The notes: generated by a model not told the origin, from the letters alone. A stretch of 64,000 bases of DNA from an uncultured Gammaproteobacteria bacterium (GCA_963764725.1 CAVXTM010000016.1:449186-513185); one strand, 5' to 3'; numbered from the stretch's first letter, positions 26,993 through 50,301 are shown. Program-made: numbers and translations.

Positions 26993-27399
26993 TTTCACCG
27001 GTGCGTAGTGTTGCATATACAAATAGATCTTGTCAAGCCAAAATTTGGTCCAGATCCCCGCACCACTCGGTCACCATGAACCCGCTGCAACGGGACACCG
27101 CTCCATGCTGTTGATTCGTTCCCAAATTGGAGTTGATGACTGGTGGCGTCGGCCGCGAGGCACTGCGCGAGTTCTACTCGCGGCGCTTAAGCATAAATTC
27201 CCCCTGTGCGGTTTCCGCTACCAATACTCTATCTTTACCCTAGCCCTGCTAATAGATTTATACGTCGCATCGTTGCTCCTTCGTCCGTGAAATGCGGTGA
27301 GCGATTTGCGCTTGTGTCGCGGTGGGCCAGGCGCCGAGTTGCTGCATGAGGGAGAAAAGATTCGCCGCACCCCAATGCTCGGTGATCTTGCGGTCCTGC

Positions 27400-29689: not shown

Positions 29690-29831
29690 GGTTCGGCTCC
29701 TATTCCAAATTCACGGTGAACTCACATTTTGCTCGCCTTGCTTAAACCAACGTACACAGGTAATCGCAGCCATCCTTTAAGGTCCTAACTCTTTGTTTAT
29801 CTATCTCCACTAGAAACGCACTTGCCGGACG

Positions 29832-29887
29832 TATAGATGATATATGTCATCTATATTTAGATTATAATGCAAATGTAATTAAGTCAA
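29832..29887 (-). promoter_or_regulatory. TetR-type operator pair (TATAGATGA-N6-TCATCTATA) plus leftward promoter TTGACT-N17-TAATCT upstream of ftsH
   Basis: Perfect 9-bp inverted repeat; same architecture as 41761..41817. Confidence 0.75.
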
Positions 29888-29940
29888 GGAGGCCGGCAAC
29901 GATATTTTTGTTCGCGCTGTGCTGGGACGCTTAAGGCCAC

Positions 29941-30030
29941 CTCACCTGCTTCGTGAGAGAGAAAGCGTTACACGGAATTAGTGTGGCCTACCTGATGAGC
30001 GAGATCGTACTTACCCATGGCGGTCTCTAT
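29941..30030 (+). pseudogene. Truncated paralogue of the TetR at 41909 (HTH fragment)
   Basis: LHGISVAYLMSEIVLTHGGLY vs intact LHGISVAELMSEIGLTHGGFY; ends at the OMF stop codon. Confidence 0.85.
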
Positions 30031-31457: not shown

Positions 31458-34400
31458 GGGGTGTGGGATTGAGCACTGTCTCTGCAGCAGGCTGGCTCGT
31501 TGATTTGAATCGCACCGTCAGCTTTGCGGATGACGACATAGAACACCGGCGTGAGGATCAGGCCGAAGAACGTCACGCCCAACATTCCGAAGAACACGGC
31601 CGTGCCGAGCGCCTGCCGCATCTCCGCGCCCGCGCCGCTCGCGAGCACCAGCGGGACGACGCCGAGGATGAACGCGAAGCTCGTCATCAGGATCGGCCGC
31701 AGGCGAAGGCGCGCGGCTTCGATGGCTGCGTCCGCGATGCTCTTGCCGGTGTCTTCGAGTTGCTTCGCGAACTCGACGATGAGAATCGCGTTCTTGCTCG
31801 CGAGACCGACCAGCACGATGAGGCCGATTTGCGTGAAGATGTTGTTGTCCATGCCGCGCAGCCAGACGCCGGCGATGGCGCTGAGCAGACACATCGGCAC
31901 GATGAGGATGATGGCCAGCGGCAGACTCCAGCTTTCGTATTGCGCGGCCAGCGTGAGGAACACGAGCAGCACGCAGAGCGGGAAGATGAACACGATGGTG
32001 TTGCCGGCGAGGATTTCCTGAAAGGTCAGCTCGGTCCACTCGTAGCCCATGCCCGGCGGCAGTTCCTTCGCGGCGAGTTGCTGCGCGAGCGCGATGGCCT
32101 GGCCGGAACTGACGCCGGGCAGCGCCACGCCGTTGATGTCCGCGGCGGGATACATGTTGTAGCGAATGACTTTGTCCGGGCCGGTGGTTTCGCGAACGTC
32201 CACGAGCGTGCCGAGCGGCACCATGTCGCCGGCGGCGTTGCGGGTTTTGAGTTTGCGGATGTCCTCGGCGCTGAAGGCGGAAGTCCGCGTCGGCCTGCGC
32301 GGTGACCTGATAGGTGCGACCAAAGCGGTTGAAGTCATTCACGTAGAGCGAGCCGAGATAGGTTTGCAGCGTGTCGTTCACATCGCTCAAGCGCCACGCT
32401 CATGCTCTTGGCCTTCACGCGGTCCACGTCCACGAAGAGTTGCGGCACGCGCGTGGTGAACGTGGTGAACACCTGCGCCAGTCCGGGCGTCTGGCTGCCA
32501 TCGACCATCATGCTGAAACGCCGTGCCGGCGAGCGCATCCAGACCGAGGTCCGCGCGATCCTGAATCATCATCTTGAAACCGGCGGTGCTGCCCAGGCCG
32601 CGCACCGGCGGCGGCGGCAGGACCAGAACGCGCGCGTCGCGCAACTCGGCGTAGCGCGCGTAGAGCTGGCCCATGATCGCCTGCGCGGACTTGTGCGGGT
32701 CTTTGCGATGCTCAAATGCTTCCAGCGAAACGAACATCGTGCCGGCATTGGGAAGATTCGCGCCGACCAGCAGATTGAAGCCGGGAAACTCCACCGTGCC
32801 GTTCACGCCGGGAATGGTGCGGGCGATTTCACCGGCGCGGCTGATGATCTTCTGGCTGCGCTCCAGGCTCGCGCCATCGGGCAGTTGCGCGAAGACGATG
32901 AGATAGCCGGAATCCTGCGTGCGGAATGAAACCCGTCGGCACGATTTTGAAACCACCCCACGTCAGCACGAGCAGCCCCGCATAGACCGCCAGCGCGATG
33001 CCGCCGCGCCGCACCGTGCCGCCCACGGCGCGGGTGTAGCCGTTCGTCGTGCGGTCGAAGCCTTTGTTGAACAGCCGAAAGAACCAGCCGAGCACCGCGA
33101 TCCATGACCGCGGCGAACCAATCCTTCTTCGCGTGATGGCCCTTCAGCAGAATGGCGCTGAGCGCGGGCGAGAGCGTCAGCGAATTGAACGCGCTGATGA
33201 CGGTCGAGACCGCGATGGTCAGCGCGAACTGCCGGTAGAACTGCCCGGTGATGCCGCTGACGAACGCGGTCGGCACGAACACCGCGCACAGCACGAGCGC
33301 CACGGCGATGACCGGGCCGCTGACTTCGTTCATCGCCTTCTTCGTGGCCTCGACCGGCGCGAGGCCGAGCGCGATGTTGCGCTCGACGTTTTCCACCACG
33401 ACGATGGCGTCGTCCACCACGATGCCGATGGCGAGCACGAGGCCGAACAGCGAGAGGTTGTTCAGCGAGAAGCCAAACACTTCATCACGGCGAACGTGCC
33501 GATGAGCGACACCGGCACGGCGAGCAGCGGAATGATGGACGCGCGCCAGTTTTGCAGGAAGACGATGACCACCAGCACGACGAGCAGCACGGCCTCGAAC
33601 AACGTGTGCACGACCGCCTGGATGGATTCGCGCGCAAAGACGGTCGTGTCGTAAATCACGCGATAGTCAACGCCTGGCGGGAAGTTCTTCTTCAGTTCCT
33701 CCAGCTTGGCCCGCACGGCGTCGGAGGTTTCGATGGCGTTCGATCCCGGCAGTTGCCAAGATGACGAGCGCGGCGGCGGGCTTGCCGCTGAGTTGCGAGG
33801 CAACGGAGTAGTCGCGCGCGGCCAGTTCGACTCGCGCCACGTCGCGGACGCGCGTGACCTGGCCTTGCGCCCCTTGCTTGACGATGATGTCGCCGAACTG
33901 CTGTTCGTCGAGCAGCCGCCCTTGCGTGCTGATGGTGAGTTGAAAATCGCTGCCCGGCGGGCACGGGCGGCTGGCCGATCGTGCCGGCGGCGACCTGAAG
34001 GTTTTGCTCGCGGATGGCGCGGACGACATCACCGGCCGTCATGTTGCGCGAGGCGAGTTTTTCCGGATCGAGCCAGATGCGCATCGAGTAATCGCGCGCC
34101 CCGAACACCGTCACTTCGCCGACGCCCGGGATGCGCGCGAGTTGATCCTTCACTTGAAGGAAGGCGTAGTTGCCGAGGTAGAGTTCATCGCGCGAGTCGT
34201 CCGGCGAGACGAGATGCGCCACCATCGTGAGGTCGGTCGATCGCTTCGTGGTGGTCACGCCGAGGCGGCGCACTTCCTCCGGCAACTTCGGCAGCGCGAT
34301 GGCCACGCGGTTTTGCACGAGCACCTGCGCGGTGTTGAGATCCGTGCCGAGCTTGAACGTGATGGTCAGCGTCATCACGCCGTCGCTGGTCGAAGTGCTC

Positions 34401-34642
34401 GACATGTAGAGCATGTTCTCGACGCCGTTGACTTCCTGCTCGATGGGCGTGGCGACGGTTTCGGCGAGCACCTTCGGATTCGCGCCCGGATACACGGCGC
34501 GCACGACGACGGTCGGCGGCACGATTTCGGGATATTGCGCGATGGGCAGTTGGAACATCGCAATCCCGCCCACCAGCACGATGACGATGGAAAGCACCGC
34601 CGCGAAAATCGGCCGGCGAATGAAGAAGTGGGAGAAGTTCAT
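31454..34642 (-). CDS. RND permease (MexF-like); several frameshifts
   Basis: [53 protein letters not shown]. Confidence 0.9.
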
Positions 34643-35788
34643 TTCGCCTCCGGGGGCTTCGCGTCCACGACGATGCCCGGCCGCACGCGCATCAGTCCTT
34701 CCACGATGATCTGTTCGCCGGGCTTCAAACCGCCGTTCACGACCCGCAGGCCGTCAATCATCGGGCCGATCTTCACCGGACGGAACTCGACCTTCTTCTC
34801 CGCGTTGACGACATAGACAAACTTCTGCGCCTGGTCCGAACCCAGCGCGCGGTCGGGAATCAGCAGCGCCGGATATTTGCCGCTGCCGGGAATGCGCATG
34901 CGCGCGAAGAACCCCGGACTCAAGCTGTGATCCTGGATTGGAAAACACGCCGCGGGCAGCGCATCGTGCCTGTGGTTGGGATCAACCTGATTGTCCACGA
35001 AATCCATGTAGCCCTTGTGCGGAAAGCCCGTCTCGTCGGCCAGCGCCATCTCGGCGGGAATCTCTGCGTCGCGCGCGCTCTCACGTTTGCCCTCCCTGCT
35101 GAAGCCGGATGTATTTCAGGATCGACGCGCTCATCGGCATCCACGTAGCAGATAAAGCGGATCGAGCGACACGAGGGTGGTGAGCAAGCGTTGCGCCCGC
35201 ACCCGAGACCCGCCGCTGACCAGATTGCCTTCCGTGACCAGCGCGCGGCCGATGCGCCCGTCAATCGGCGCGCGGATCTCGGTGAATTCGAGATTGAGTT
35301 TGGCCGAGTCCAGCGCGGCCTTGGCTGATTTCACCGCCGCCAGTGCCGAAGCGTAGGTTTTGGTCTTCGTGTCGAAGTCCTCCTCGGAGATGGCCTTGGT
35401 CGCGATCAGCCGCTTGGCCCGCTCGGCATCATTCTTCGCCAACTCCGCCTGGCTGTAGCGCCCGTTGATACTCGGCGTCCGCGCGGTCGAATTCCGCCTG
35501 ATACGGGCGCGGATCAATCGTGAACAGCAGGTCGCCTTTCTTCACCTCCTTGCCCTCCTTGAAATGAACCTTGTCGAGATAACCGCTCACGCGCGCTCGA
35601 ATTTCGACGGTCTCCGGCGATTCGAGCCGTCCGATGTACTCGTCCCACTCGATGACCTCGCGCGCGATTGGCTGGATGACGGAAACGACCGGCGGCGGCG
35701 GAGCGGCTTGGGGGGCGCCTTTCCCGCAGCCGGTCACCACCAATCCGATCAAGAGCGCAGCGATTCCAAGCAAGTAGGTTACTTTCAT
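34639..35788 (-). CDS. RND periplasmic adaptor (MexE-like); frameshifted
   Basis: VTGC lipobox, EIRARVSGYL, LFTIDPRPY, RAPIDGRIG. Confidence 0.88.
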
Positions 35789-36195: not shown

Positions 36196-36573
36196 TCAGC
36201 GTCTGGGAATCATCGCACGTGCCGCCGCTTGTCCGACAAAGAATCTGCCCAGCGCTGTGACGCGCAGCGTTTGTTCGACTTCTATTGGATTAAGTGCATC
36301 AATCGGTCCGCGCAATCGCCGACTAGCATTGTGAATAACGACGTTGGGTGTACCGATATCTCGCTCAACGCCTGCAAACAGCCCCGCCACGTCGCTTTCC
36401 TGCGATACGTCGCAGGTATAAGCATGCCCCGCAATGCGCTTGGCGAGATCTTGAAGGGTGTCTCCACGTCAAGCGGCGATGGCCACTCGGAAGCCATCTG
36501 CCGCGAAGCGCCGGGCGAGCGCCGCCCCGAGTCCGGGGCCGACGCCAACCATTAACGCAACATGATCTGACAT
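36196..36573 (-). pseudogene. Short-chain dehydrogenase/reductase with an internal stop and 3' truncation
   Basis: GGAGG RBS, MSDHVALMVGVGPGLGAALARRFAADGFRVAIAA*..CDVS..VIHNAS. Confidence 0.8.
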
Positions 36574-36659
36574 ATAGTGACCTCCGCCCTGCCGACGGGT
36601 TTGGTCTTATGGCGCAAAAAACCGGATTGCTCAAATGATTAAGCCGCTGGATTATACTT

Positions 36660-37265
36660 CTATCCATCCTTGAACTCGGTCGCGACCATGGCGGGCCTCA
36701 ATGCAAATTCGACATACCAACGAGCGAGGCTGGGACGCGAGGCGCGCCAGTCGAGCTCTGTGTATCGAAAGTCTAACCATCCCAACATACACCCCACTGC
36801 GACCTGCCCGATGGTCACGGGACCGACTAGCCCATCGGCATGCGCTTCGAGCCAGTCAAGACTCCGTGCCTGCTTGCGGGTTTGGAACTTATCGAATTGG
36901 CCAGAGCGCTTATCGTCGGGACGCTGCTGCTCGATAAAGCGGAGTACACCAGCGTCCGAGATTCCGTCTGCGATTGCTTGTAGTTGTAACGCGCGCCAGC
37001 GAGCTAGCCCGACTGGGGGAAAGAGTTTTTCGCGGGGATGGAGCGAATCGAGGTATTCGCAAATCACATGGGAATCCACCAAAACCATTCCGTCATCCAG
37101 CGTCAACGCCGGCACTTTTCCGAGCGGATTGATAGCGACATACCCAGAGCGTTCGTCCCGAAAATTGACAAGGATTGGGGTTACTTGATCCGACAACCCG
37201 CACTCATGCGCCACCACGAGCACCTTCCGGACAAAGGGTGACGTAGGGCTAAAGCTCAGTTGCAT
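36660..37265 (-). CDS. Glutathione S-transferase
   Basis: SPTSPFVRKV, INPLGKVPAL, DSHVICEYLD; RBS before M at 37265. Confidence 0.93.
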   Translation of the reverse strand: MQLSFSPTSPFVRKVLVVAHECGLSDQVTPILVNFRDERSGYVAINPLGKVPALTLDDGMVLVDSHVICEYLDSLHPREKLFPPVGLARWRALQLQAIADGISDAGVLRFIEQQRPDDKRSGQFDKFQTRKQARSLDWLEAHADGLVGPVTIGQVAVGCMLGWLDFRYTELDWRASRPSLARWYVEFALRPAMVATEFKDG

Positions 37266-37391
37266 GACATCGACTCCTTCTAGATGTGAACACCACCAAA
37301 TCGCCGAATGAAAGACCGAAACGTTAGAGGCGATCCTTGACCATACCGAGACAACGTCAGACATCTAGCCATGGGTGATGGTGAAAGTCCG

Positions 37392-38177
37392 CTATGCCGC
37401 ATTACTCTCGTCAGCCTCAAGCTTGTCGAGTAACTCCGCCATGCGCATCACCATCTGGACCATCGTTCCTCCGAGGGCCAAAGCGAACCACACGGAGATC
37501 ACAAATGCGTAGTGCACGGGCGAAGCGAAAAGCTCTTCCCGAAACCAAAAGGTGTGCCCCCATTCGTTGAACCCCACCGACGGTAATAGCATGAAGGGAC
37601 CGACGACCGCGAGCGTCAAGGGTAAGGAGATCCTGTTGGCGTAAAGCGGCAGCCGCGTCCGTGCGTAAAGCCACGTAGCCATACCCAGAAGGGAGTACAG
37701 CGGGAAGCCGAGATAAAACACCACGATGTGGTTCGGTGTGAACGGGGTATCACGAACCGCCGCCTGATGCCATGCATTGTCTTGCTCGCCGAAATAACTT
37801 CCCGCCCAGTAAACTGCTAGGCCGTACACGCCGATCCACATCATCAGCGCAAAATACCGCCTGATTTCTTCCTGAGTCGAGAGTCGATCGAGGTGGCGAT
37901 CCCGCGTAGCCCACAGGTACCAGGCGAGGCCTATTCCCAGCGCCACCTGAAATACTATCTCGATGTAGAGAAGCCGCCGCCAATAGACGTCGAAAATTGG
38001 CATGGTCGAATCGAGTCCGGTCTCTAAGGCAAAGGCACCTTGGTAGACGCGGATAGATACATACATAAAAGCAATTGCAAACAGACCCGCACCGTACATT
38101 GGTAGGTCGCGCAGGTACCAGCGCGACTGACTATCATTTATCGATGCCTGCTTTAGTGCTGCTAAGTTTGTTGCCAT
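37392..38177 (-). CDS. pxmC: Copper membrane monooxygenase subunit C (PmoC/AmoC family)
   Basis: EQDNAWHQ..RDTPFTPNH and NEWGHTFW..EELF..PVH copper-site motifs. Confidence 0.93.
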   Translation of the reverse strand: MATNLAALKQASINDSQSRWYLRDLPMYGAGLFAIAFMYVSIRVYQGAFALETGLDSTMPIFDVYWRRLLYIEIVFQVALGIGLAWYLWATRDRHLDRLSTQEEIRRYFALMMWIGVYGLAVYWAGSYFGEQDNAWHQAAVRDTPFTPNHIVVFYLGFPLYSLLGMATWLYARTRLPLYANRISLPLTLAVVGPFMLLPSVGFNEWGHTFWFREELFASPVHYAFVISVWFALALGGTMVQMVMRMAELLDKLEADESNAA

Positions 38178-38208
38178 ATCACACCTCTCTGTCGTAAGTT
38201 ACCCTCAG

Positions 38209-38350
38209 AGCTTTTGAACAAATCTGCTGCGCTCGGGATCTCGCGTTCCGACGGTGCTCGGAATCCTCATGTATTTCACTATACACTCCGGTTCCTCCGC
38301 TCCGGCGGACCACGACCTCCCTTCGCTCGCGACGATTTTTTTCACAAGCT
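38209..38350. mobile_element. ~142-bp MITE-like element between pxmB and pxmC
   Basis: Imperfect terminal inverted repeats AGCTTTTGAACAAATC / GATTTTTTTCACAAGCT; internal stem-loop potential; no transposase. Confidence 0.6.
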
Positions 38351-38409
38351 ATTAGCCGAGACGGCTGGGACCTTTCGTGCTTTACTACGTCATGCAGTAA
38401 TCACGCTGT

Positions 38410-39636
38410 CTATCCACCGCCCATTACTGGAACAGCGGACGCCGAAATACTCGATAAGTAGCGCGCTCCCAAGGTGTCGTTGAAGAAGAGTAATGCGCCA
38501 ACGCGACTGTCGGCATCCTTTATGATGGTCGAGAGTTTCTGTAGGTCCCAGGCCGCGTCGGTGGCCGTTACTTGCACCGTGCGGATTTCGCCGGGCGCGA
38601 TCGGTGCGTTCGACTCCACACGCAATCCCGTTCTTGCGCTAAGCTCCTCGGGATATGCAAGGTCAACGGGCCCTGCTTCTGGATTGAAGAACCTGACCGT
38701 CGCCGTGTTCAGCTCCGCTAGCTGTATAGGGTGTTCCGCTTTGTTGGTCACCTCTAAGGTGAGACTCAAGGCGCGCTCGACCACTCGGTAGGTGGCGTGC
38801 TTGACCTTTACGCCCACCCTTTGAGATTCCGGCAAGGGTTCCACGTGCGTGCGACCCGTTTGCAGGGGAATGGTCTCTGGATAGGCGCTATCGACAGCCG
38901 CGTAGGCCCCGGCGATGAGCACTAGAGTAGCGCCCAATCCGATGATAGCGATCCTGCGATCGGTTGGCGTGATCAGAGCCTCCTCGTTCCCCGCTTGTAC
39001 TAGCTTATATCGGAGTATGAAGAGCGGCCTTCGCACCCACCACAGAAGCCATGCCGTGCCAAGCACAAGCCAGATCCCGTGCCACAGCACGCCGTTCCGT
39101 GTGCCAAACGTCTCTAAGTCGATCGTACGACCCGAAACGGTCGTGACCTCATTGCGGAAGTCGGTGGCCACTCCCGTCACCTCGATCCACATTCCCGGTC
39201 CGACGATGACGCCGACATCCTTGAGATTCATCATGGGATGAATGTGGTAGCGGCCAGGAATGCGGGCCTTCAAAGAAAGCTTAAACTCATAGTCGGCCCC
39301 AAGTTGCAAATCCACGGAATTCGCGACGCTGATCCCATTAATATAGGTCCCTGTTCTTAGCAAGACAGGGGTAGGCATCGCGAGATTGAGGAATGCCGAA
39401 TCCGGCTTCGCAACGGCGTTGGGCCAATCCTCTGCGACGTGAAAGCGTCCACTTAAGATGACTTCATCGTTCACCTTCAAATTCGTGTGCGACCATGCAA
39501 TGTCGTACCACTGAATCGTCCGCATGCGAATGAAAGGTTCGAGCGCCCGTTCGCCGTGTGCGAAGACCGAGGGGATCACCGTAATCAGAGCGAGCAGGCC
39601 CATAACCAATGAGCGCGAAAGTATGAGTTGTCTCAT
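38410..39636 (-). CDS. pxmB: Copper membrane monooxygenase subunit B (PmoB/AmoB family)
   Basis: Signal peptide then HGERALEPFIRMRTIQWYD; GRYHIHP His pair; TIPLQTG; DADSRVGALLFF. Confidence 0.93.
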   Translation of the reverse strand: MRQLILSRSLVMGLLALITVIPSVFAHGERALEPFIRMRTIQWYDIAWSHTNLKVNDEVILSGRFHVAEDWPNAVAKPDSAFLNLAMPTPVLLRTGTYINGISVANSVDLQLGADYEFKLSLKARIPGRYHIHPMMNLKDVGVIVGPGMWIEVTGVATDFRNEVTTVSGRTIDLETFGTRNGVLWHGIWLVLGTAWLLWWVRRPLFILRYKLVQAGNEEALITPTDRRIAIIGLGATLVLIAGAYAAVDSAYPETIPLQTGRTHVEPLPESQRVGVKVKHATYRVVERALSLTLEVTNKAEHPIQLAELNTATVRFFNPEAGPVDLAYPEELSARTGLRVESNAPIAPGEIRTVQVTATDAAWDLQKLSTIIKDADSRVGALLFFNDTLGARYLSSISASAVPVMGGG

Positions 39637-39654
39637 GGGTGTCTCCTTGCGGAT

Positions 39655-40398
39655 TTAGATCCGGTTGAGAAAACGTACTGAGCTAAATAGCTTGCCGATA
39701 TAGAGCCAAAGGCCATAGAGGGGCATGGCTAATACGGCAGCGCAGAAAGCGGTGAGCGGCGTCGCGTACGTTCCATAAGTCCTGAGAACGCCGCGCTCTA
39801 TTATTCGCAGATATTCTGGAACCCCTGGCCGCACATATTGGTAGCCGAGGAGATCCGCGATGGTCATCGTATCGCCGTGGTGTGCCACGGCCTCGTGAAA
39901 GGGCGCGATGATCGGCCAATTGGCGGGATAGAAGACGGCCGCGAAGAGGCTCGCGCCGAGCACCGCGGTGGCTAGGTAGCTTCGAGTCAACAGTAAGATG
40001 AAATCCAATATGAGGGCGCTTGGAATAAGCGTCGCCGGTAAGACAATATTGATGGGATAGTTGGTCCAGAGATGGTAGGCAAACCAGCGGGTGATGCACA
40101 TACCGATCAGGAGAACCACGGCGCATACCGTGGCCCCCATTGGCAACCGAAAGTGTGTCCACAGCACATACTGGACCGCTGCCGGGAACGTAATCGCCAT
40201 CAACGGCGTTACCAGAGGCCACCATTGCCTATCTTTCCAGTCCATCCAGAAATCCCAATCCCCGACTGTCAGAATCATGCTCAGGTGGAAGGCACCGGTC
40301 AAAACGAGAATGATTGGAACCAAGGTCAGATAGTCGAATGCTCGTGCGATCTTTGCTGTTTTCTGCCCTGGAATTGTTTGTAGTAATTGCGCTGCCAT
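39655..40398 (-). CDS. pxmA: Copper membrane monooxygenase subunit A (PmoA/AmoA family)
   Basis: GDWDFWMDWKDRQWWP, FYPANW, PEYLRIIERG. Confidence 0.93.
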   Translation of the reverse strand: MAAQLLQTIPGQKTAKIARAFDYLTLVPIILVLTGAFHLSMILTVGDWDFWMDWKDRQWWPLVTPLMAITFPAAVQYVLWTHFRLPMGATVCAVVLLIGMCITRWFAYHLWTNYPINIVLPATLIPSALILDFILLLTRSYLATAVLGASLFAAVFYPANWPIIAPFHEAVAHHGDTMTIADLLGYQYVRPGVPEYLRIIERGVLRTYGTYATPLTAFCAAVLAMPLYGLWLYIGKLFSSVRFLNRI

Positions 40399-40433
40399 AG
40401 GACCTCCATTGCTCTACATTTTGATTGCTCTAC

Positions 40434-41762
40434 TTAGCGCCCTGGGGCGCCGTTGTCGAAGGCTTTGACTCGAAGCACAAAGTAAGGGGGCTTCGAGAGT
40501 GCCTCTCCCGCATTGAGGACCGCGGATTGGTGCAAGCGATTCACCACGGCGTAAAGGTCTCCCTGAGGACCGAAACTAAAGGAGTTGACCCACGAGAGAT
40601 CTTTCGATTGCACGAGCCGTGTGTACTTGCGGTCGGGTGTAATGACGCCGATGGCGTTCGCGGCGAGATCGCCAAGATAGATGTTGTCGCTCTGATCGAT
40701 GGAAATCCCATCGCAAATAGGCTTGCTGCTATACCGCTGGACTCGACCTTCGAGTAGGACTTCGCTCAGTTGGTCATTCGCTAAATCGTCGGCGCGCACG
40801 CGGTACAGGCTCATGCCGTGCATAGGACCAAAATAGACCCACTCGTTTTTGGTATCTATCGTGATGGGATTCACGCCCAGCCGTGGGCGATGAATTGTGC
40901 CATCCTCTTTTTTGATCTGAACGGGTCGACCGTCCATGATGAGATCGACCGGCTCCGGGATAACGCTATGGTGACCTTGAAGAACACGGCGCGCGCGATT
41001 TGTTTTTAGGTCAACGATGATTAATGCCGCGTCCGATCCACCGGCCGGATCCGCGATATAGATGGCGTTGCGTTTTGGGTCAATCGCGAAATCATTAACA
41101 AAGGCATCCGGCGGTGTTGCAGGCGGCGGCAGCTCGATTACTCTGTGGAGCTTGTCATGTTCAGAGTCCCACCCGACGAGTTTCGGGACCACCTGGCTTC
41201 GCAGGCCATTGTCGAGCATCCAGACGATGCCCTCACCGTCAGAGCGGATCCCAAGTACCGAATCAAGCCGCACCCCATGCGTGCGCTCGGTCCTGTCGTT
41301 GAACTGTGTGTTCGGAAAGGGCTTCAGGGAGCCATCCTGGCCCAGTTCCGCAACGGAGTAGGCGGGACCGTAAAACTGGTGCAGACTGATAATTACCCGC
41401 CCATCAAACGTCACGGTGATGTTTCCCGGTGCGGCGTCGAGCCGCGCGCGAATTTCATAAGGTTGCTCGGGAAGTGCAGCGGTTTCTGAATTACCCGCAA
41501 TGACACAGAAGAGCGCCAAAAGGAGGTTTTTCAAGTACCAGCCGTTGCGCCGGCGGGGTTTGCAGTGTTTCGGCGGCGGGTCAAAGATCGCTCTCGCTTC
41601 GCCTCCCAGCTCTAAATTCGGCCTATACCGATCCAATCCCTGCAGGAATTGAAACATAGCTATCCAAGACGCCAGATCTCTATTCATCCGAGAAAAGATA
41701 TTAATCATGGCAATCGCTCCTAGTCTATCGATGTTACAAACCAAAGCGCATCGCTCGAACAT
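40434..41762 (-). CDS. Yellow / major royal jelly (L-dopachrome tautomerase-related) beta-propeller; true start probably nearer 41535-41560
   Basis: PGNITVTFDGRVIISLHQF, DSVLG, VWMLDNG, FVNDFAID, CDGISID; signal-like segment LKNLLLALFCVIAG. Confidence 0.8.
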   Translation of the reverse strand: MFERCALVCNIDRLGAIAMINIFSRMNRDLASWIAMFQFLQGLDRYRPNLELGGEARAIFDPPPKHCKPRRRNGWYLKNLLLALFCVIAGNSETAALPEQPYEIRARLDAAPGNITVTFDGRVIISLHQFYGPAYSVAELGQDGSLKPFPNTQFNDRTERTHGVRLDSVLGIRSDGEGIVWMLDNGLRSQVVPKLVGWDSEHDKLHRVIELPPPATPPDAFVNDFAIDPKRNAIYIADPAGGSDAALIIVDLKTNRARRVLQGHHSVIPEPVDLIMDGRPVQIKKEDGTIHRPRLGVNPITIDTKNEWVYFGPMHGMSLYRVRADDLANDQLSEVLLEGRVQRYSSKPICDGISIDQSDNIYLGDLAANAIGVITPDRKYTRLVQSKDLSWVNSFSFGPQGDLYAVVNRLHQSAVLNAGEALSKPPYFVLRVKAFDNGAPGR

Positions 41763-41817
41763 TTAGATGATGCATATAATCTATTAAAAGATTATGATAG
41801 TAATCTAAATATGTCAA
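41761..41817 (-). promoter_or_regulatory. Tandem TetR operators (TAGATGA-N6-TAATCTA; AAGATTA-N6-TAATCTA) overlapping a leftward promoter TTGACA-N17-TAATCT
   Basis: Palindromes seen directly in the AT-rich gap between the divergent tetR and the yellow-pxm operon. Confidence 0.75.
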
Positions 41818-41908
41818 GAGGTACCGCGAAGTTGGTTTTGGTCGGCGTTCGGCCGGCCGCCTCCCGTGCCGGTGGGTATTGACAAACTGGGTCAGTGGAG
41901 AATCACGT

Positions 41909-42526
41909 ATGCGACGTTCAAGAGAAGAGGCGGCTAAGACGCGACAAGAGATCATTAAAGCCGCATCGACACTCCTTCGCGAACGAGGGTTACATGGGAT
42001 TAGTGTGGCGGAGCTGATGAGCGAGATCGGACTTACCCATGGCGGATTTTATACCCATTTCGACTCCAAAGAGGCACTCGCCTCTGAAGCCATAGAAGCC
42101 GCATTCGGTGAATCGGTGCGTGGTTGGCATAAAGTATTGGAGAGCGCACGGACCAAGAGCGGCTTCGCCAGCCTCGTCGATCTCTACTTGGGAGAAAAAC
42201 ACCTCAGGGATCCGGGGACGGGTTGCGCCGTACCCGCCCTTGGAAGCGAAATCGCGCGCGCGGGCCCTGTGGTGCGGGAAAACGTCGCCAAGGGGATTAA
42301 TGAAATGATCGAGATCTTTTCGAAGCAAATAGAAGGCACGTCGCCTGAACGCAAAAAGGAGCGGGCAATTGCCACCGTCGCCTGCCTGGTTGGCGCGATA
42401 GTTATGGCCAGGTGCGTCAATGACCGAACAACCGCACAATCGTACTTGGAAGGCACCCGCAGACAATTGTTAAGCAACCAGGCGGCAACCCCATCAAGAT
42501 CGAAGAAAAAGCCCAGCCGTTCCTAA
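41909..42526 (+). CDS. TetR/AcrR family regulator
   Basis: MRRSREEAAKTR..GISVAELM..GLTHGGFYTHFDSKEAL; GCAVPALGSE. Confidence 0.95.
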   Translation: MRRSREEAAKTRQEIIKAASTLLRERGLHGISVAELMSEIGLTHGGFYTHFDSKEALASEAIEAAFGESVRGWHKVLESARTKSGFASLVDLYLGEKHLRDPGTGCAVPALGSEIARAGPVVRENVAKGINEMIEIFSKQIEGTSPERKKERAIATVACLVGAIVMARCVNDRTTAQSYLEGTRRQLLSNQAATPSRSKKKPSRS

Positions 42527-42849
42527 CTTAGCCGTGTCAATCTCGATGCAGTTCAACGCCGATGGCGAGCCGGACCACGGTGCGCGGCCGTTCTCCGGGA
42601 ATCCGCCCGTGGCGCGACCTGTTGCCGCGACTGACCGGAAGAGGTCCGAGGCGCCGCGCCCGGCGCCATCCAGGTAGCTGCCGACTACAGCCAGCTCGGG
42701 AGCCTGCTCATGGTGCAGATCTGCTTGGCCTCGCCCTGCCCTTCCGGCGCGATCTCTTCGCCCGACTCTCCAACCTCCGCAGCGCTTGACGCGGCGCCGC
42801 GCGGCTGCCAGGATCAGACCCCGGTGGCAATCATCGCGGAGGCGGAGCT

Positions 42850-43308
42850 ATGCTGGATGCGATCAAGGCGTTCTTCGAAGAGCATATTGCGCTGTGTGGC
42901 CCCGACGGGCCGCAGGACGAGGAGCACCGGCTGCGCCTGGCGGTAGCGGTCCTACTCGCAGAGGTAGTGCGCATGGATGAGGAGATCGCCGAGGCTGAGC
43001 GGGCGCAGGTCCTCGCCTCGATCGCCGAGAAGTTCGAGCTCGACGCGAAGGAGGCCGCAGAGCTTATGGCGCTTGCCGAGGAGGAGGCGCGGGAAGCCAC
43101 GGATTTCCATCAGTTCACCTCCCAGATCAACCTGACCTTCAGCCCCGCGCAGAAGGTAAAGCTCATCGATCACCTGTGGCGAGTCGCCTACGCCGACGGC
43201 ATCCTGCACAAGTACGAGGAGCACCTTATCCGCAAGGTCGCAGATCTTCTCCATGTGCCCCATGAGCAGTTCATCGCCACCAAGCTCCGCGTCCGGGGTG
43301 ACGCCTAA
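42850..43308 (+). CDS. TerB family protein
   Basis: LAVAVLLAEVVRMD, LWRVAYADG..YEEHLIRKVADLL. Confidence 0.85.
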   Translation: MLDAIKAFFEEHIALCGPDGPQDEEHRLRLAVAVLLAEVVRMDEEIAEAERAQVLASIAEKFELDAKEAAELMALAEEEAREATDFHQFTSQINLTFSPAQKVKLIDHLWRVAYADGILHKYEEHLIRKVADLLHVPHEQFIATKLRVRGDA

Positions 43309-43356
43309 GCAGGTTGCTGAAAACGGATCCCCGTGGGCAATCCCGACGAAACCTGA

Positions 43357-43989
43357 TTAAGCCACTGTCCGACTGACAACGGCAAGCCAAGGCTGTGCAG
43401 CGCGAGGGAGTCCCTGCGGTCGATAGTAGTGTTTTATGATCTCGAAACCGGCCGATTCCAGCAGTAGCTGATAGGTAGCGAGTTCAAGGTAAGTGCCGTA
43501 GCGATTTCCCTGCCATCCCTCGCTGTTTCCTCTGGGATTTGAAGAAAAAAGTACTCCTTGTGGTTTTAGTGCGGACCTTAGCTGTTTTAGGACCCTGGTC
43601 ATTTCCTGTGAAGGAACATGAAAGAGCGAAGCATTTGCAAAAATACCGTCGACAAACTGCTCCGGTAATTCTAGTTTAAGGAAATCTTGGTGGAGCACCG
43701 GAAGACCGGTCAGTGATTTCGCCATCTCACAAAATTCGTAGCTTCCATCTAAGCCAATCGCATGATGTCCCTCGTTCTTAAAAAAGAGAAGATCGCGGCC
43801 CGGACCGCACCCCAGATCCAAAAGCGATAGACCTTTTTGGTTGGGCAAAGCCGACAATAATGCCTCATAATTTTGCGTCACATCGTGATCTTTTGTCCCG
43901 TGCCAAAAACTATTGGCATTTGCGTTGTAATGTTCAATCGTAGCGGAGCTGATCCTTTCTAACTCATTGGGCGACCAGAACTTACGCAT
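43357..43989 (-). CDS. Class I SAM-dependent methyltransferase
   Basis: LDLGCGPGRD, DGIFANASLFHVP. Confidence 0.9.
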   Translation of the reverse strand: MRKFWSPNELERISSATIEHYNANANSFWHGTKDHDVTQNYEALLSALPNQKGLSLLDLGCGPGRDLLFFKNEGHHAIGLDGSYEFCEMAKSLTGLPVLHQDFLKLELPEQFVDGIFANASLFHVPSQEMTRVLKQLRSALKPQGVLFSSNPRGNSEGWQGNRYGTYLELATYQLLLESAGFEIIKHYYRPQGLPRAAQPWLAVVSRTVA

Positions 43990-45166
43990 GGCAATATCGC
44001 CTTACCAAATAAAGATCTTTTGTTCCATGAAAGATATTCAGAAACTGGACTGGGGTCAAATTACCTCTCTTAATTTTCCTTTTTCAGATTACGAGTACCT
44101 ACTGGCGCTTGAAACGAGTCAGAGTGTTGGGAGTGAAACGGGTTGGATACCTCGCTACCTCACTGTATGGCAGGAAGTCGAGCTTGTGGGAGCAACCTAT
44201 GTTTATCTGAAAACTAATAGTTATGGAGAATACATTTTTGACTGGGAATGGGCGGCTGCCTATCATCGGTACGCGCTGCCATACTATCCAAAGCTGGTTT
44301 CTGCCATACCGTTTACTCCTGCTACGGGTGCCAAGATCCTGTTACGCCCGAATGCGGACAGAGAAGCTGTCTCGCGGGCACTAATTTCTGCGATGCTGGC
44401 ATTGGCTGAAGAGAAAGGGTGTCATTCCGTGCATTGTCTTTTCCTCCCGCCGGAGGAAGTCCCTCATTTCTCTGAAAGAGGTTTTTTGATAAGACATAGC
44501 TTTCAGTACCACTGGCTTAATAGAGAGTATCGGGACTTCCCCGATTTTCTGGACCATCTTAAGACAAAACGAAAAAAACAGATCGTACGGGAACGAGAAC
44601 AGTTAATAGCACGAGGGCTTGAGATCCGAGTTGTTACAGGTGAGGCTATTCGTCCTAGACATGCCGGCATCATGTACCGGTTCTACCTTTCGACGATAGA
44701 TAAAATGGGCGGTTATCCCTATCTCACGCCTCGCTTTTTCGATACGGTAATAGCAACGATGAGAGATCGACTGGTCCTTATTTTGGCCTACGACCGGGGA
44801 GCGGAAATAGCAGGCACGATCAACTATCGAAAAGGGGATCATCTTTACGGCCGCTATTGGGGCGCTGATGAAGACGTGAGGCACTTACATTTCGAGCTTT
44901 GCTATTACCAGTCCATTGACTATGCCATACGCAATAAAATCACACTCTTTGAAGCTGGGGCTCAAGGCGAACATAAGGTTCCGCGCGGCTTTCTCCCGGA
45001 ACTTAACTACAGTGCACATTGGATTTTTCATCCGCAGTTTCGAACTGCAATTGCCCAGTTCATCAATGAGGAAAAAGCTCTAATAAGCCGACTCATCGAC
45101 GATAAGCTAGGCAGCTCTCCTTACCATCAACAAATTCAGGGTTCAGGTCGTGTACCAACGATTTGA
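43988..45166 (+). CDS. GNAT/FemAB-like acyltransferase (DUF482 type)
   Basis: SYGEYIFDWEWA, YYPKL..PFTP, LYGRYWG, LHFELCYYQ, EAGAQGEHK. Confidence 0.9.
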   Translation: MAISPYQIKIFCSMKDIQKLDWGQITSLNFPFSDYEYLLALETSQSVGSETGWIPRYLTVWQEVELVGATYVYLKTNSYGEYIFDWEWAAAYHRYALPYYPKLVSAIPFTPATGAKILLRPNADREAVSRALISAMLALAEEKGCHSVHCLFLPPEEVPHFSERGFLIRHSFQYHWLNREYRDFPDFLDHLKTKRKKQIVREREQLIARGLEIRVVTGEAIRPRHAGIMYRFYLSTIDKMGGYPYLTPRFFDTVIATMRDRLVLILAYDRGAEIAGTINYRKGDHLYGRYWGADEDVRHLHFELCYYQSIDYAIRNKITLFEAGAQGEHKVPRGFLPELNYSAHWIFHPQFRTAIAQFINEEKALISRLIDDKLGSSPYHQQIQGSGRVPTI

Positions 45167-45189
45167 TCTATACGAGTGGGATCCGCGAC

Positions 45190-45684
45190 TCATAAACCAC
45201 CGCCGACCCCGAAGCCAAAGTAAAACTGGGGGTACCAAGCAGCGTCTCCGGGCTCCGGCCACAAGTAAATCTGAATCGCCTTTACAAGCGGGTATGTGTA
45301 AGGATGTTCACCTATGTTGCGAATGAGCACGTTTTCCAAAACTCCATAGACCGTTACCTCGCGATCGGCACTATAGATCGCCCGGTCAAGAAACGCGTCG
45401 CTATCGGCTATGAACCGCCCGAGTGATACGTCGCCTGGTTCGGGTCGGCCATCGGTGCCGAGCGCTATAGCAAGGATTTCCACTTCCGTTTTGTTTCCTA
45501 CACTCTTCGTATGCACGATTCTCCCGCCCCACCGAACGCGTCGTTTCACGAATGCCTTGGGGTTATGTTGTACGTCAGCCAAACTAGGATTGTCTGCCAG
45601 TGGTTCGCGGATCACGAGCGGCACGTCGCTTGCGCACCCACCAAGCAAAAACAGGAGTAACAAGCCGCCTAAGACTTGTTTCAT
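45190..45684 (-). CDS. Slp family outer membrane lipoprotein
   Basis: LGGC lipobox, VRWGG, GRF..FLD..Y..R.VTV.G, Y.YP. Confidence 0.85.
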   Translation of the reverse strand: MKQVLGGLLLLFLLGGCASDVPLVIREPLADNPSLADVQHNPKAFVKRRVRWGGRIVHTKSVGNKTEVEILAIALGTDGRPEPGDVSLGRFIADSDAFLDRAIYSADREVTVYGVLENVLIRNIGEHPYTYPLVKAIQIYLWPEPGDAAWYPQFYFGFGVGGGL

Positions 45685-45703
45685 TACTGTTTTCTGAGTC
45701 GGA

Positions 45704-46138
45704 TCAAGAGGGCCGATGTGGTAACGGGGATACAATCCCTAACTGCTGTAACATGCCAAAGGTATCTGCGTTAATCCAATCTTCCTCGATCTTGCCAGCA
45801 ACAATGGAGTAAATCGCTTGCCCCGTGATTCTCATGGACTTGCCCGTCGGTTCAATGCTCAAGAGCTTTCCTTTGTGCGTGCCGTATGCTGACCAGCGAA
45901 GCGCAACCTTCTCCCCCTCGGCAACCATGTCGTCGGCCCTGACTTGCAGGTCAGGGAAAGCAGCGCAAAACAGTCGAACATATTGCTTAGCTCCTTCAGG
46001 GCCGCGGCTCAGATCGGGAATCGTGTTAGAGTGAATGACCGCGTCGGGAGCGACAATCTCGTCCAAAATATCGAGCCTTCGCTGATTCCAGACTGCGTCA
46101 ATAAGACGGTAGATGATTGCTTTGTTCTCGTTTGACAT
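45704..46138 (-). CDS. SnoaL-like ester cyclase
   Basis: AAFPDL, AEGEKVALRW..GTHKG..PTGK. Confidence 0.88.
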   Translation of the reverse strand: MSNENKAIIYRLIDAVWNQRRLDILDEIVAPDAVIHSNTIPDLSRGPEGAKQYVRLFCAAFPDLQVRADDMVAEGEKVALRWSAYGTHKGKLLSIEPTGKSMRITGQAIYSIVAGKIEEDWINADTFGMLQQLGIVSPLPHRPS

Positions 46139-46591
46139 ACGACTATCTCCACAAGCTGTTCGTGGCGAGTGAGTAGTCTACGCCGCTCGGGAGGTTTGCA
46201 ACAGGCGACTACCGTGTGACAACTCCCGAAATTTATGGTCGGCCGTCCCGCTGGCTACTGACGGTGTACTAGACGATCCGTGTACTCGAACGGGTGGAAA
46301 TACTTGCACGTATCTTTCGTCTTGGCCTCGACCCGGCTGCGCTCATGTGCACGCTTGCCGCCGACAATTGATGAAATTGGAGAAAAATACTAGGTATGGT
46401 TTCGGCATATCCGATAGATGACAAAACATTCCATAGCTTTTTGTGTCCATATCAACTATAATTTACTTGTTGCAGTACACGTCTTGTAGTCAGTTCGGAA
46501 GTCCCTCCAGTTTTTTCGGTAGTTACTCCCGCAATGTCGTCTTCAGGATCGGGTTTGCACCATTCCAATTCAACCAAACAGAGGTATTTCC

Positions 46592-46795
46592 GTGATTACA
46601 GGAATAGTAAAGTGGTTCAACGACAGTAAGGGCTACGGCTTCATTACCCGGGAGGACGGCGGCAAGGATGTGTTCGTGCATCACTCTGCCATCCAGGGTA
46701 ACGGCTTCAAGTCCCTGGCGGAGGGTCAAAAGGTGACCTTCGACGTGGAGCAGGGTCCGAAGGGCCCGTCGGCGGCAACAGTCCAGCCGGCCTAA
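46592..46795 (+). CDS. cspA: Cold-shock protein
   Basis: [24 protein letters not shown]; long AT-rich 5' region. Confidence 0.95.
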
Positions 46796-46825
46796 ACATC
46801 AAGCACTGCGTAAGCAGGTTTCACG

Positions 46826-46856
46826 AGACCCCGCCACCCGGCGGGGTCTTTTTTTT
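46826..46856 (+). terminator. Rho-independent terminator of cspA
   Basis: AGACCCCGCC-ACCC-GGCGGGGTCT followed by a T-run. Confidence 0.9.
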
Positions 46857-46883
46857 GGAGGAAGGCGAGGGAATGATACCTTT

Positions 46884-49346
46884 ATGAATGAGGCCACTCG
46901 CAGAAGGTTTCTGAAGTTCATGGGCCTTGGTGCCAGCGCCATTGCCGTCTCGTGCATGTCCAGATCCAGGGAGAGCCTGTTTGCGCCGGCCGCGAAGACC
47001 GGCAAACCCGGCGGCCTGACCCCCCTGCGCCTGCCTCATCCGCTACCCATCTATTCGGAAAGGAACAGCTGGCTCGCGACGGGGATCGGTGGGATAGGCG
47101 TGATCAAGCACTCACACGACCTTGTTAACCTGACTCAATATACGCTTATCGACGACGTCGTGGTCCCGCCGGAATACGAATACTATTTGATCGCAAGCTG
47201 GGGTGACCGCTTGTTCGCCGACCCTGATCACTATGTCGGCTACAATCACGATTACACGGCCTTTGTGCCGCTCAATGACAGTGACCACGATGGCTGCCTC
47301 TACATCAACCATGAGTACGTATCGTACCCGTTCTCGAAGCTCTCGCCCGATACGCCGGCCGACATCGCGTCGTTGGGAACCGCATTCGAGTCCTTCCCGC
47401 TTGTCGTCGGCTTTGCCTTACCGACAACCAAAGACCGCCAGGTGTTAGGCGAGATGTTGTACAACTGCGGCGGCACGGTCGTGCGGGTCCGCCGCACTGG
47501 GCGCCACGGTAAGAGCGCCCGGTATGAGGCCGTGGCGGGCGATGCCAAGAATCGCCGCATTCATGGACTCTCGGGGCTTGCCATCAACGCAGAGCGAGCG
47601 CCGACCGACCCGTACCAGGCGGTGACCGCCTGGGGGAGCCTTTCCCATCAGCAAGGTGACAGAAGCTTTTTGGTCGGGACCGGGCCGGCGGCGACGGACG
47701 TGTTCGAGGGCGTCAATGCCGATGGCCTGGGCAATCGCATCATCGGCACGGCTTATAATTGCTCGGGGGCCAGAACCCCGTGGGGCACGGTCCTCTCCGC
47801 CGAAGAGAACTTCCACGGCAACGCCACGTTCTTCATAGGCGTGCAGGAAGGTGTGCTGCCGAACGGCAGTCAGACCGGCTACATCACGGGGACGAGCGGG
47901 GCCGAGTTCGGACTGCTCGGGGAGAAATACGGCTGGATGGTCGAGATCGATCCTCGGGGTCCCGAATCGCGCGGCAAGAAGCACACGGCCCTCGGTCGCT
48001 TCCGGCACGAGAACATCGCCATGCGCGCCGAGCGCGGTAAACCCATCGTCGTGTACCTCGGTGATGACCGGCGCGGCGGCCACACCTGGAAATACGTCAG
48101 CCGAGCGAATGTCACACACGAGCAGGACCCCGCCAACAGCGGGTTGCTTGCGGAGGGCACGCTCTATGTCGCGAGATTCATGAGCGACGCTACGGGCATC
48201 TGGATCCCGCTTGAGCTTAACACGCTGGTAGATCCCAACGCGCCCACCGTTCTGAGCTCAGCGGAGCGTGCGGCACGGACGGACGGCAAGGCGCAACGCG
48301 ACGGCGGGGTGCTCCTGCCAAGACGCAATGGCATTGCAGGGCAGACCAGCGATGGCGGCTCGCTGGCAGTGACCTTGAACGGGGTCAGTAGCCCCATCGT
48401 GCTCACCGAGGCGGAGGCGCTCGAGAGCTACAGAACGAAAGGCGGCAGCAAGCCGGCCGGGACGGTGCGGCTATCGGACTATTATACCAGTCAGGGTGCG
48501 CTCCTCTGCGACGCCTTCCTCGCCGCCAACCTCATCGGCGGCACGCCCTGCTCACGACCTGAGGACATCGAGATCCATCCCCTCACCCAGCACGTGTTCA
48601 TCGCCATGACCGATGGGGCGGCCGGCAGCGACGGCTATCCCGACTCGCGTGTCTTTGTCCTCGGAAAATACGGCGCTGGCGTTGCGGAGACGCAGCCCCA
48701 CGGTGGCCTCTATAAGATCATCGAAGACGCAAGTGACGGCACGGGCATTACCTTTACCTGGGACCGCTTCCTCCAGGGTGGAGAGGCGGGCGCCGAGGGT
48801 GGCACCGGCTTCGCCGCAATCGATAACCTCGTGTTCGACCGGCGCGGAAATCTGTGGCTCGTGACCGACATGTCGACCGAGCGGCACAACGGCTTCGCCC
48901 TTGGCGCGAACCCGGCACAGAAGACCATCGATCACACGGTCATCAACGAGGCGGCAAGCGATCTCGTTGGCGTGTTCGGGAACAACTGGCTGTTCTACGT
49001 ACCGACAATGGGCGCAGATGCCGGTAAGGTCGTTCCCTTCGCGTACGGACCGCCCCGCTGCGAGATGACTGGTCCGACTTTTGTAGGCGATACCTTGTTC
49101 CTTTCGGTGCAGCATCCGAGCGAGGATTCGATTCCGAACGACGGCACCCCGGCGAGCAGACTCAACCGTGACCTCGAGCTGCTCGGTTTGGACGGCAACA
49201 CGTTCATGCAGAACCGCACGCTACCGCGCGGCAGCAACTGGCCGAGCAACCTCGGCGGCAACGCGCTTGGGGCGCCCAAACCGGCAACGATCGGGATCCG
49301 TCGCATCAACGGTGGTCCGTTTGTCCCGGGCGACGACCTTGAGTAG
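46884..49346 (+). CDS. phoX: PhoX-family alkaline phosphatase (Tat-exported)
   Basis: TRRRFLK, INHEY, NCSGARTPWGT..EEN, GRFRHE, RPED, DNL, CEMTGP, SVQHP. Confidence 0.9.
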   Translation: MNEATRRRFLKFMGLGASAIAVSCMSRSRESLFAPAAKTGKPGGLTPLRLPHPLPIYSERNSWLATGIGGIGVIKHSHDLVNLTQYTLIDDVVVPPEYEYYLIASWGDRLFADPDHYVGYNHDYTAFVPLNDSDHDGCLYINHEYVSYPFSKLSPDTPADIASLGTAFESFPLVVGFALPTTKDRQVLGEMLYNCGGTVVRVRRTGRHGKSARYEAVAGDAKNRRIHGLSGLAINAERAPTDPYQAVTAWGSLSHQQGDRSFLVGTGPAATDVFEGVNADGLGNRIIGTAYNCSGARTPWGTVLSAEENFHGNATFFIGVQEGVLPNGSQTGYITGTSGAEFGLLGEKYGWMVEIDPRGPESRGKKHTALGRFRHENIAMRAERGKPIVVYLGDDRRGGHTWKYVSRANVTHEQDPANSGLLAEGTLYVARFMSDATGIWIPLELNTLVDPNAPTVLSSAERAARTDGKAQRDGGVLLPRRNGIAGQTSDGGSLAVTLNGVSSPIVLTEAEALESYRTKGGSKPAGTVRLSDYYTSQGALLCDAFLAANLIGGTPCSRPEDIEIHPLTQHVFIAMTDGAAGSDGYPDSRVFVLGKYGAGVAETQPHGGLYKIIEDASDGTGITFTWDRFLQGGEAGAEGGTGFAAIDNLVFDRRGNLWLVTDMSTERHNGFALGANPAQKTIDHTVINEAASDLVGVFGNNWLFYVPTMGADAGKVVPFAYGPPRCEMTGPTFVGDTLFLSVQHPSEDSIPNDGTPASRLNRDLELLGLDGNTFMQNRTLPRGSNWPSNLGGNALGAPKPATIGIRRINGGPFVPGDDLE

Positions 49347-49373
49347 CCATTGATAGAAGGAAGGTGACCGACG

Positions 49374-50264: not shown

Positions 50265-50301
50265 CGTATTGTAAAGTCGCTCACGTAGGGTTCCGAGACT
50301 C

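Follow-up and report, generated by a model that had tools for sequence, protein, structure and literature searches.

What does an alternative copper monooxygenase oxidise, and which of the genes around it belong to the same pathway? The question is raised by a locus in a 64,000 nt stretch of DNA (hereafter the window; GCA_963764725.1 CAVXTM010000016.1:449186-513185, with coordinates counted from its start) from an uncultured Gammaproteobacteria bacterium, which carries pxmA-, pxmB- and pxmC-like genes for a copper membrane monooxygenase (CuMMO). The enzyme encoded by pxmABC, pXMO, known since 2011, occurs widely among methanotrophs, atmospheric-methane lineages included; papers up to 2026 continue to describe its function as unknown (PMC6215863, PMC8630023, bioRxiv 10.64898/2026.02.02.703227). 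From its sequence, the locus is identified here as an intact representative of type II, a clade that branches deeply as sister to the canonical pxmABC operons; it is linked to a propeller gene of the yellow/MRJP family and a TetR-family repressor gene.

Genes were called from an open reading frame (ORF) listing together with a Pfam profile search (Table 1). The CuMMO genes run in A-B-C order on the minus strand, the yellow gene, a glutathione S-transferase (GST) gene and the remnant of a short-chain dehydrogenase/reductase (SDR) gene are co-oriented with them, and tetR is divergent. There are 35 bp between the end of yellow and pxmA, and about 126 bp between pxmC and the GST gene when ATG 37265 is taken as the GST start. 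A first-pass annotation of this DNA had reported this gene set, its orientation, the A-B-C order and gaps of 35 bp and about 125 bp, all of which were recovered. The maximal ORF of yellow extends over 40434-41762; that of tetR is open from TTG 41879, ATG 41909 being the likelier start.

All three CuMMO subunits scored far above the Pfam cut-offs and likewise above those of the NCBIfam AmoA/B/C_BACT models. In alignments of 9-11 rows, PxmB residues H27, H131 and H133 were invariant with pmo, amo and other CuMMOs, and PxmC residues D133, H137, H150, N204, H208 and H222 were invariant with diverse CuMMOs. We take these columns to be the copper ligands, as in the pMMO structures. The copper-ligand motifs are thus intact, as first described, and because all of the metal-ligand positions are kept the monooxygenase is presumably active.

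A PxmA scan of one genome per species gave 38 loci, against which the window proteins were compared by tblastn, and Pfam was run on 143 ORFs from 12 of these loci. Two pxm architectures could be separated. In the relatives of the window's kind (type II: L006-L010 and L017, including Methyloglobulus morosus KoM1), whose PxmA is 70-74% identical to that of the window, a TetR gene on the opposite strand is followed by yellow-pxmA-pxmB-pxmC in 6/6 annotated loci, with 60-215 bp between yellow and pxmA. In the canonical type I loci that were annotated (Methylomagnum, two Crenothrix, a Methyloglobulus metagenome-assembled genome (MAG) and two other MAGs), where PxmA is about 60% identical, the order is yellow, a LysR gene on the opposite strand and then pxmABC, again in 6/6. 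Both types were found together in two genomes; M. morosus KoM1 carries both.

The phylogeny of PxmA is congruent with this division. In a tree of 82 PxmA, PmoA and AmoA rows, from which duplicate loci of the organism's own genome, rows with internal stops and rows below 85% coverage were left out, the type II sequences form a clade (6 rows, SH-aLRT 99) whose sister is type I (53 rows, SH-aLRT 98), and the two form a joint clade (SH-aLRT 97). Rows were assigned to the groups according to their identity to the query, and the assignment agrees with the architecture in every case with available flanks. The earlier assignment of the locus to the pxm type, based on its A-B-C order, therefore holds, with PxmA in the same clade as canonical pxmA as a separate sister branch.

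The type II branch itself is already known, an 'additional pxmA like gene' in M. morosus having been noted by Knief 2015 (PMC4678205); no description of its neighbourhood was found in print. The window and M. morosus KoM1, which belong to different bacterial orders, share the type II clade (71% PxmA identity), the TetR/yellow-ABC layout and the operator block described below. They differ after pxmC, where the KoM1-type loci carry an AhpD/CMD-like gene, three of them also SDR and DUF1993 genes, and the window carries the GST gene and the SDR stump; in addition, the window's yellow protein is set apart by an N-terminal extension. With the canonical pxmABC of methanotrophs in the Gamma- and Alphaproteobacteria (Tavormina et al. 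2011, cited in PMC4678205 and PMC6215863) the window shares the A-B-C order, co-occurrence with pmoCAB, a linked yellow gene and the joint PxmA clade. It differs in PxmA identity (about 60%), in its separate deep branch, in having TetR rather than LysR, in its tail genes and in the place of yellow, which is a separate upstream gene in the canonical loci and the first gene of the operon in the window. A variant canonical layout, with pxmCBA on one strand and LysR and yellow together on the other, was seen at three loci (L106, L107 and L123), and one canonical locus (L087, 8290-8952) keeps yellow, LysR, pxmC and a major facilitator superfamily (MFS) gene, without pxmA and pxmB.

The first-pass annotation also described a divergent TetR with palindromic operators over the promoter. 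Beside the tetR gene, two palindromes were found at a promoter-like site, just downstream of a TTGACA box: O1 (AGATTA-N6-TAATCT) at 41789-41806 and O2 (TAGAT-N10-ATCTA) at 41764-41783. TetR homologues (48-54% identity) are divergent in 6/6 annotated type II loci, and a promoter/operator block is common to all seven type II intergenic regions compared, the window included. This block consists of TTGACA, the palindrome AGATnA-N6-TAATCT across the spacer and -10 region, a -10-like box ((T/C)ATAAT/TAATCT) and, downstream, TAGATG-N8-CATCTA. The predicted arrangement is the classic layout of a TetR-repressed promoter. Because both TetR and the operator block are conserved with pxm, an operon derepressed by a small molecule, which would release TetR, is a sound inference; the suggestion of a ligand-inducible CuMMO is supported to the same extent. 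No TetR regulator of pxm was found among the literature matches listed, as judged by titles and the starts of abstracts.

A degenerate second copy of the operator/promoter region lies at 29830-30030 and aligns to 41740-42040; it has a perfect TAGATGA-N6-TCATCTA palindrome and includes a tetR fragment (69% identity over 29 aa by tblastn). It faces an ftsH paralogue (27767-29689), which may belong to the same TetR regulon.

The linkage of yellow to pxm was examined in a sample of 401 genomes from the order to which M. morosus belongs (the unpublished G061 counted in), with thresholds of E ≤ 1e-10 for yellow and of E ≤ 1e-85 and at least 57% identity for PxmA-type matches. Yellow was present in 94 genomes, and 96 PxmA-type matches were found in 84. 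Yellow occurred in 81 of these 84 genomes and in only 13 of the 317 without a PxmA-type match; the 13 comprise three paralogues (26-30% identity), five fragments with stops and five others. In 68 of the 96 matches, yellow is encoded on the same strand no more than 3.5 kb upstream. Of the 68, five are direct neighbours, with yellow at most 300 bp away, and are all of the type II matches in the sample; the distances of the other 63 have their mode near 1.23 kb, which fits an intervening LysR gene. As to the remaining matches, yellow is 3.9-11.5 kb upstream in six, nearby on the opposite strand in five, far away in one and not on the same contig in 16.

A reverse survey of metagenomes, seeded with the yellow homologue of Methylocystis sp. 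SB2 (64% identical), gave 80 loci. LysR stands beside yellow in 73, the other seven ending within 1.2 kb. pxmA is present in 48 of the 80. As 29 loci end within 3 kb, 51 have room for it; the three of these without pxmA include one that keeps pxmC only. The pxm-linked members of a tree of 104 yellow sequences fall in a single clade (96 rows, SH-aLRT 99), and its two branches, type II (10 rows, SH-aLRT 93) and type I (86 rows, SH-aLRT 99), repeat the division of the PxmA tree. The copy number of yellow equals the number of pxm-type operons in 5/5 genomes checked. Of the 15 genomes in the organism's own order two gave yellow, this one and the unpublished G014, which has a fragment.

Yellow, listed in the first-pass annotation as a neighbour, is thus conserved beside pxm in the genome survey, the metagenome survey and the yellow tree. 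These comparisons identify it as a real, conserved pxm partner, co-inherited, by the mirrored trees, since before the split between type I and type II. No paper on a linkage of pxm with yellow or a propeller was found in a search that fell short of most subscription journals and excluded supplements, and none linking pxmABC with LysR in a search short of most subscription journals. The linkage of yellow and a dedicated regulator to pxm operons is apparently undescribed, and we regard it as the more valuable result.

The likeliest start of the yellow protein is ATG 41708, with GGAG 8 nt upstream, giving 424 aa. In this lineage an N-terminal extension of about 57 aa precedes a hydrophobic export or anchor segment, and the long ORF is open in all eight proteins fetched from the lineage (79-99% identical) despite in-frame changes of length; most of the pxm-linked members have a short signal-peptide-like start. 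The AlphaFold2 model (pLDDT 96) is a six-bladed propeller and closely resembles PDB 2qe8, Ava_4197 of Anabaena variabilis, a 'putative hydrolase' (E 1.4e-115, 55% identity, TM 0.96). After 2qe8, Foldseek returned MRJP1 and the Aedes dopachrome conversion enzyme, followed by lactonase-type propellers; the insect MRJP/yellow and dopachrome-conversion proteins share the fold at only 13-16% identity to the window's yellow. The database names are 'L-dopachrome tautomerase-related' (NCBI) or 'sugar lactone lactonase YvrE', and a homologue (P0015) matched only clusters named 'L-dopachrome tautomerase-related' or gluconolactonase.

Beyond this core the gene content varies. After pxmC, the type II relatives carry a 160-aa AhpD/CMD-like gene (4/6), an SDR gene (3/6, one truncated) and a DUF1993 gene (3/6), and L017 has a drug-type MFS gene instead. 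No copy of the AhpD-like protein was found by tblastn in the whole genome of the window's organism; the relatives' SDR had no match at the window locus (tblastn, 1e-3) and DUF1993 matched only elsewhere in the genome. In 24 of the 34 type I metagenome loci that extend 900 bp or more past pxmC, a co-oriented MFS transporter gene comes next (L066, L074, L075, L079, L080, L083, L084, L086, L087, L089-L093, L102, L104, L106, L107, L112, L120-L123 and L125). For the four MFS proteins scanned (L074, L121, L091 and that of Crenothrix L014) the nearest NCBIfam models are of L-lactate or oxalate/formate types, below cut-off. Five others of the 34 (L049, L054, L055, L059 and L062) carry a gene of the 4-oxalocrotonate tautomerase family, one of the enolase superfamily or both, and the remaining five carry neither these nor an MFS gene. 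The locus type thus has a core of regulator, yellow and pxmABC and a variable tail rich in small-molecule-handling genes. A DUF1993, AhpD-like or tautomerase gene sometimes follows the MFS gene. The nearest model for the enolase-superfamily gene is L-talarate/galactarate dehydratase, below cut-off. In the five tautomerase/enolase loci yellow is 94-95% identical to the Methylocystis query in three (L049, L059 and the nearly identical L050 region) and about 81% identical in two.

Taken together, we consider it probable that the locus encodes a ligand-derepressed alternative copper monooxygenase (type II pxmABC) and a periplasmic propeller that acts as its partner in the same pathway. The conserved unit would comprise five genes, the divergent tetR and a single transcription unit, yellow-pxmA-pxmB-pxmC. 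TetR would bind the two palindromic operators that overlap the promoter and keep the operon off until released by a small ligand. The propeller, to judge from its hydrophobic N-terminal segment, would be exported or anchored to the periplasm. Because it has been co-inherited with pxm since before the two types separated, it may be expected to act in the pathway of the monooxygenase, with the product or substrate of that enzyme as its most likely target. As to the substrate, a non-methane small organic compound has a little less than an even chance of being the right answer, methane under special conditions is a weaker candidate, and anything else seems unlikely. More tentatively, yellow might be an obligatory fourth component of all pXMO systems, either an enzyme for the substrate or product or an accessory subunit, with TetR and LysR sensing what the enzyme truly uses or makes. 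In that case the function of pXMO could be deduced from the ligands of the regulators and the activity of the propeller; it may be the oxidation of a non-methane organic compound to an acidic product moved by a carboxylate-type MFS transporter. The locus offers two experimental handles, namely a conserved periplasmic partner with a close solved structure and two kinds of ligand-sensing regulator, with a well-defined predicted operator for TetR.

Several observations weigh against this reading. The conserved promoter was missed by a generic scan, so that its call rests on conservation, and the distance between the -10 and -35 boxes can be read as either 15 or 17 nt. The contigs from an RNA library show presence only, and not transcription, strand or operon structure. 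Co-inheritance shows linkage and not the role of the protein, and the propeller fold appears to have uses without a CuMMO, because the family reaches beyond pxm and beyond CuMMO hosts (234 clusters at E ≤ 1e-30) and 2qe8 is cyanobacterial, its host Anabaena having no known CuMMO. There are also signs of decay. A 147-bp repeat, a miniature inverted-repeat transposable element (MITE), sits after CTCAG in the pxmB-pxmC spacer and could disturb pxmC expression; it has imperfect inverted ends. The spacer is 232 bp here and about 25-35 bp in the type II relatives, contigs of 4/4 public runs join 38206 to 38354 without the insert, and parts of the spacer are matched 21 more times elsewhere in the genome (89-100% identity). 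Contig C3 (19614-35357, L043) holds a copy of window 39680-55709, 95-99% identical over three main aligned blocks; it may be a segmental duplication or else a strain variant binned together with this genome. The copy spans the PhoX side, TetR, yellow and pxmA, which carries a frameshift and is cut off 25 nt before its stop; partly broken kdp genes follow in place of pxmB and pxmC. An insertion sequence (IS)-type transposase replaces about the first 16 codons of pxmA in the nearest named MAG (L005:1-1100), where pxmB is split. The downstream SDR and resistance-nodulation-division (RND) neighbours in the window are broken as well.

The alternative that fares best is that pXMO is a second methane monooxygenase, used at low oxygen, with nitrite or on trace methane, and that yellow and the tail genes are bystanders or serve general stress functions. 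In its favour, pxmABC transcripts rose under hypoxia and nitrite in two gammaproteobacterial methanotrophs (cited in PMC6215863), pxmA is found in upland-soil Methylocapsa and USC-gamma genomes (bioRxiv 10.64898/2026.02.02.703227), and all of the metal-ligand columns are shared with pMMO. However, both pxm types are wired to regulators that sense small molecules, TetR or LysR, and both keep a dedicated, enzyme-like periplasmic partner, which a second methane oxidiser would not obviously need. The tails, moreover, are enriched in carboxylate-type MFS genes and in tautomerase and enolase-superfamily genes. A divergent pMMO homologue has also been shown to be an acetone monooxygenase, PMO3 (pmoCAB3) of 'Methylacidiphilum' (PMC8630023), a precedent for a non-alkane substrate. 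Like the window's enzyme, PMO3 is a divergent CuMMO among product-processing genes, and its cluster includes a glutathione-dependent step (glyoxalase I). PMO3 differs in that it has the C-A-B order, comes from another phylum and is described there without yellow, TetR or a GST of this kind. We regard the methane alternative as rather unlikely.

The marks of decay would also fit a horizontally acquired, dispensable island that is being lost and has no useful expression. To the truncated and frameshifted duplicate, the IS element and the pxmB frameshift in the nearest MAG, the MITE and the downstream pseudogenes can be added the scarcity of yellow in the order (2/15 genomes) and the GC content of the locus (0.53-0.57, against 0.59-0.61 for the contigs). 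The state of the window's own genes argues the other way: the five core genes are open and full length with their ligand columns intact, the operators are well preserved, and PxmA is 94% identical to its nearest relative as protein and 91.5% as DNA, as expected under purifying selection. We regard a decaying relic as improbable.

The first-pass annotation had proposed a glutathione-dependent epoxide pathway, in which the CuMMO epoxidises an alkene, the GST conjugates the product, the SDR oxidises the conjugate and the neighbouring RND pumps possibly export the products. CuMMOs do epoxidise alkenes, and the IsoI/IsoH (isoprene) and StyI/StyH (styrene) pathways likewise combine a monooxygenase, a GST and a short-chain dehydrogenase. 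The likeness is one of gene categories only. Those pathways use soluble di-iron or flavin monooxygenases; the window has a dead dehydrogenase and a YibF-like GST, in a pairing without conservation. The GST aligns to solved YibF-like GSTs from residue 3 of its 201-aa form (query 3-197; PDB 4ibp, 6e-42) and scores 115 bits against NCBIfam PRK10357, below the cut-off of 181. Against plasmids it gave 316 records, all below 60% identity, the best from Azospirillum and Aminobacter (47-54%); the ten commonest genera listed do not include Rhodococcus or Gordonia, with 47 further genera beyond these, a comparison that does not address kinship to IsoI or StyI.

Around pxm, neither the 38 genome loci (tblastn) nor the 80 metagenome loci contained a homologue of the GST, and the rest of the organism's order, 14 genomes, had none either (E ≤ 1e-20). 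Of the neighbours named in the first-pass annotation, close pxm homologues hence share yellow and TetR and not the GST. Very close relatives do share the adjacency of GST and pxmC, since a contig of about 93% identity from an RNA-library run covers the GST and reaches across the spacer into 22 nt of pxmC; some relatives' contigs seem to join the SDR region to the end of pxmC and skip the GST, a weak hint given their short sides. A generic scan, whose four terminator-like sites were fewer than the shuffled mean, placed none in the pxmC-GST gap, and transcription of the operon may extend into the GST gene. Nothing connects the GST with epoxides, and a literature search short of most subscription journals gave no relevant paper on pxmABC together with a GST. 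A GST of a different class lies two genes after pxmC in canonical locus L042. Of the adh_short profile the SDR covers only positions 2-30 and 51-124; its frame is interrupted by a stop at 36469-36471, and nothing recognisable as the catalytic half comes after it in any frame. SDR genes also follow pxmC in three type II relatives, although theirs are dissimilar to this stump. In the adjacent RND operon (30027-35788) the membrane-fusion gene is in two pieces and AcrB in four, the outer-membrane gene being intact; with at least six ORF pieces, it does not bear out the proposed export. The GST is best placed as a putative YibF-like, lineage-specific tail gene outside the conserved module, and the epoxide pathway is not supported and is the least probable of the explanations. 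A second RND operon, with MarR, is intact at 20601-27022.

Table 1 Features of the pxm locus and its surroundings in the window.
Feature	Position	Strand	Basis or remark
TetR-family repressor gene	41909..42526	+	PF00440 E 5.9e-12, weak TetR_C_13_2
Inferred promoter with operators O1 and O2	41764..41817	-	TTGACA 41812-41817, then CATAAT/TAATCT
yellow/MRJP-like six-bladed propeller gene	40434..41708	-	PF03022, 50.5 bits against a cut-off of 19.8
pxmA-like, CuMMO subunit A	39655..40398	-	PF02461 E 4.9e-99
pxmB-like, subunit B, with signal peptide	38410..39636	-	PF04744 E 2.5e-151
147-bp mobile repeat (MITE) in the pxmB-pxmC spacer	38207..38353		Absent from relatives' contigs
pxmC-like, subunit C	37392..38177	-	PF04896 E 1.3e-89
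YibF-like glutathione S-transferase gene	36660..37265	-	GST_N_2/GST_C_2; maximal ORF 36660-37364
SDR pseudogene, N-terminal half only	36199..36606	-	adh_short profile match
Remnant second operator/promoter block with internally deleted tetR fragment	29830..30030		Regex match TAGATGATATATGTCATCTA

The genome is 4.2 Mb in 19 contigs with about 59% GC and has a canonical pmoCAB operon on contig C18. Its GTDB order numbers only 15 genomes. [quoted passage not shown] The genome looks like USC-gamma and is treated here as USC-gamma-like, so the type II branch would reach that kind of lineage. According to PMC13333085, pxmA is missing from all eight USC-gamma MAGs analysed there, and bioRxiv 10.64898/2026.02.02.703227 reports pxmA in two USC-gamma genomes and as common in upland-soil Methylocapsa. 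At the contig end, the last 8 kb of the window (56000-64000) have 72-74% GC, against about 59% for the genome, with few Pfam matches on long ORFs, and may be foreign or mis-joined DNA.

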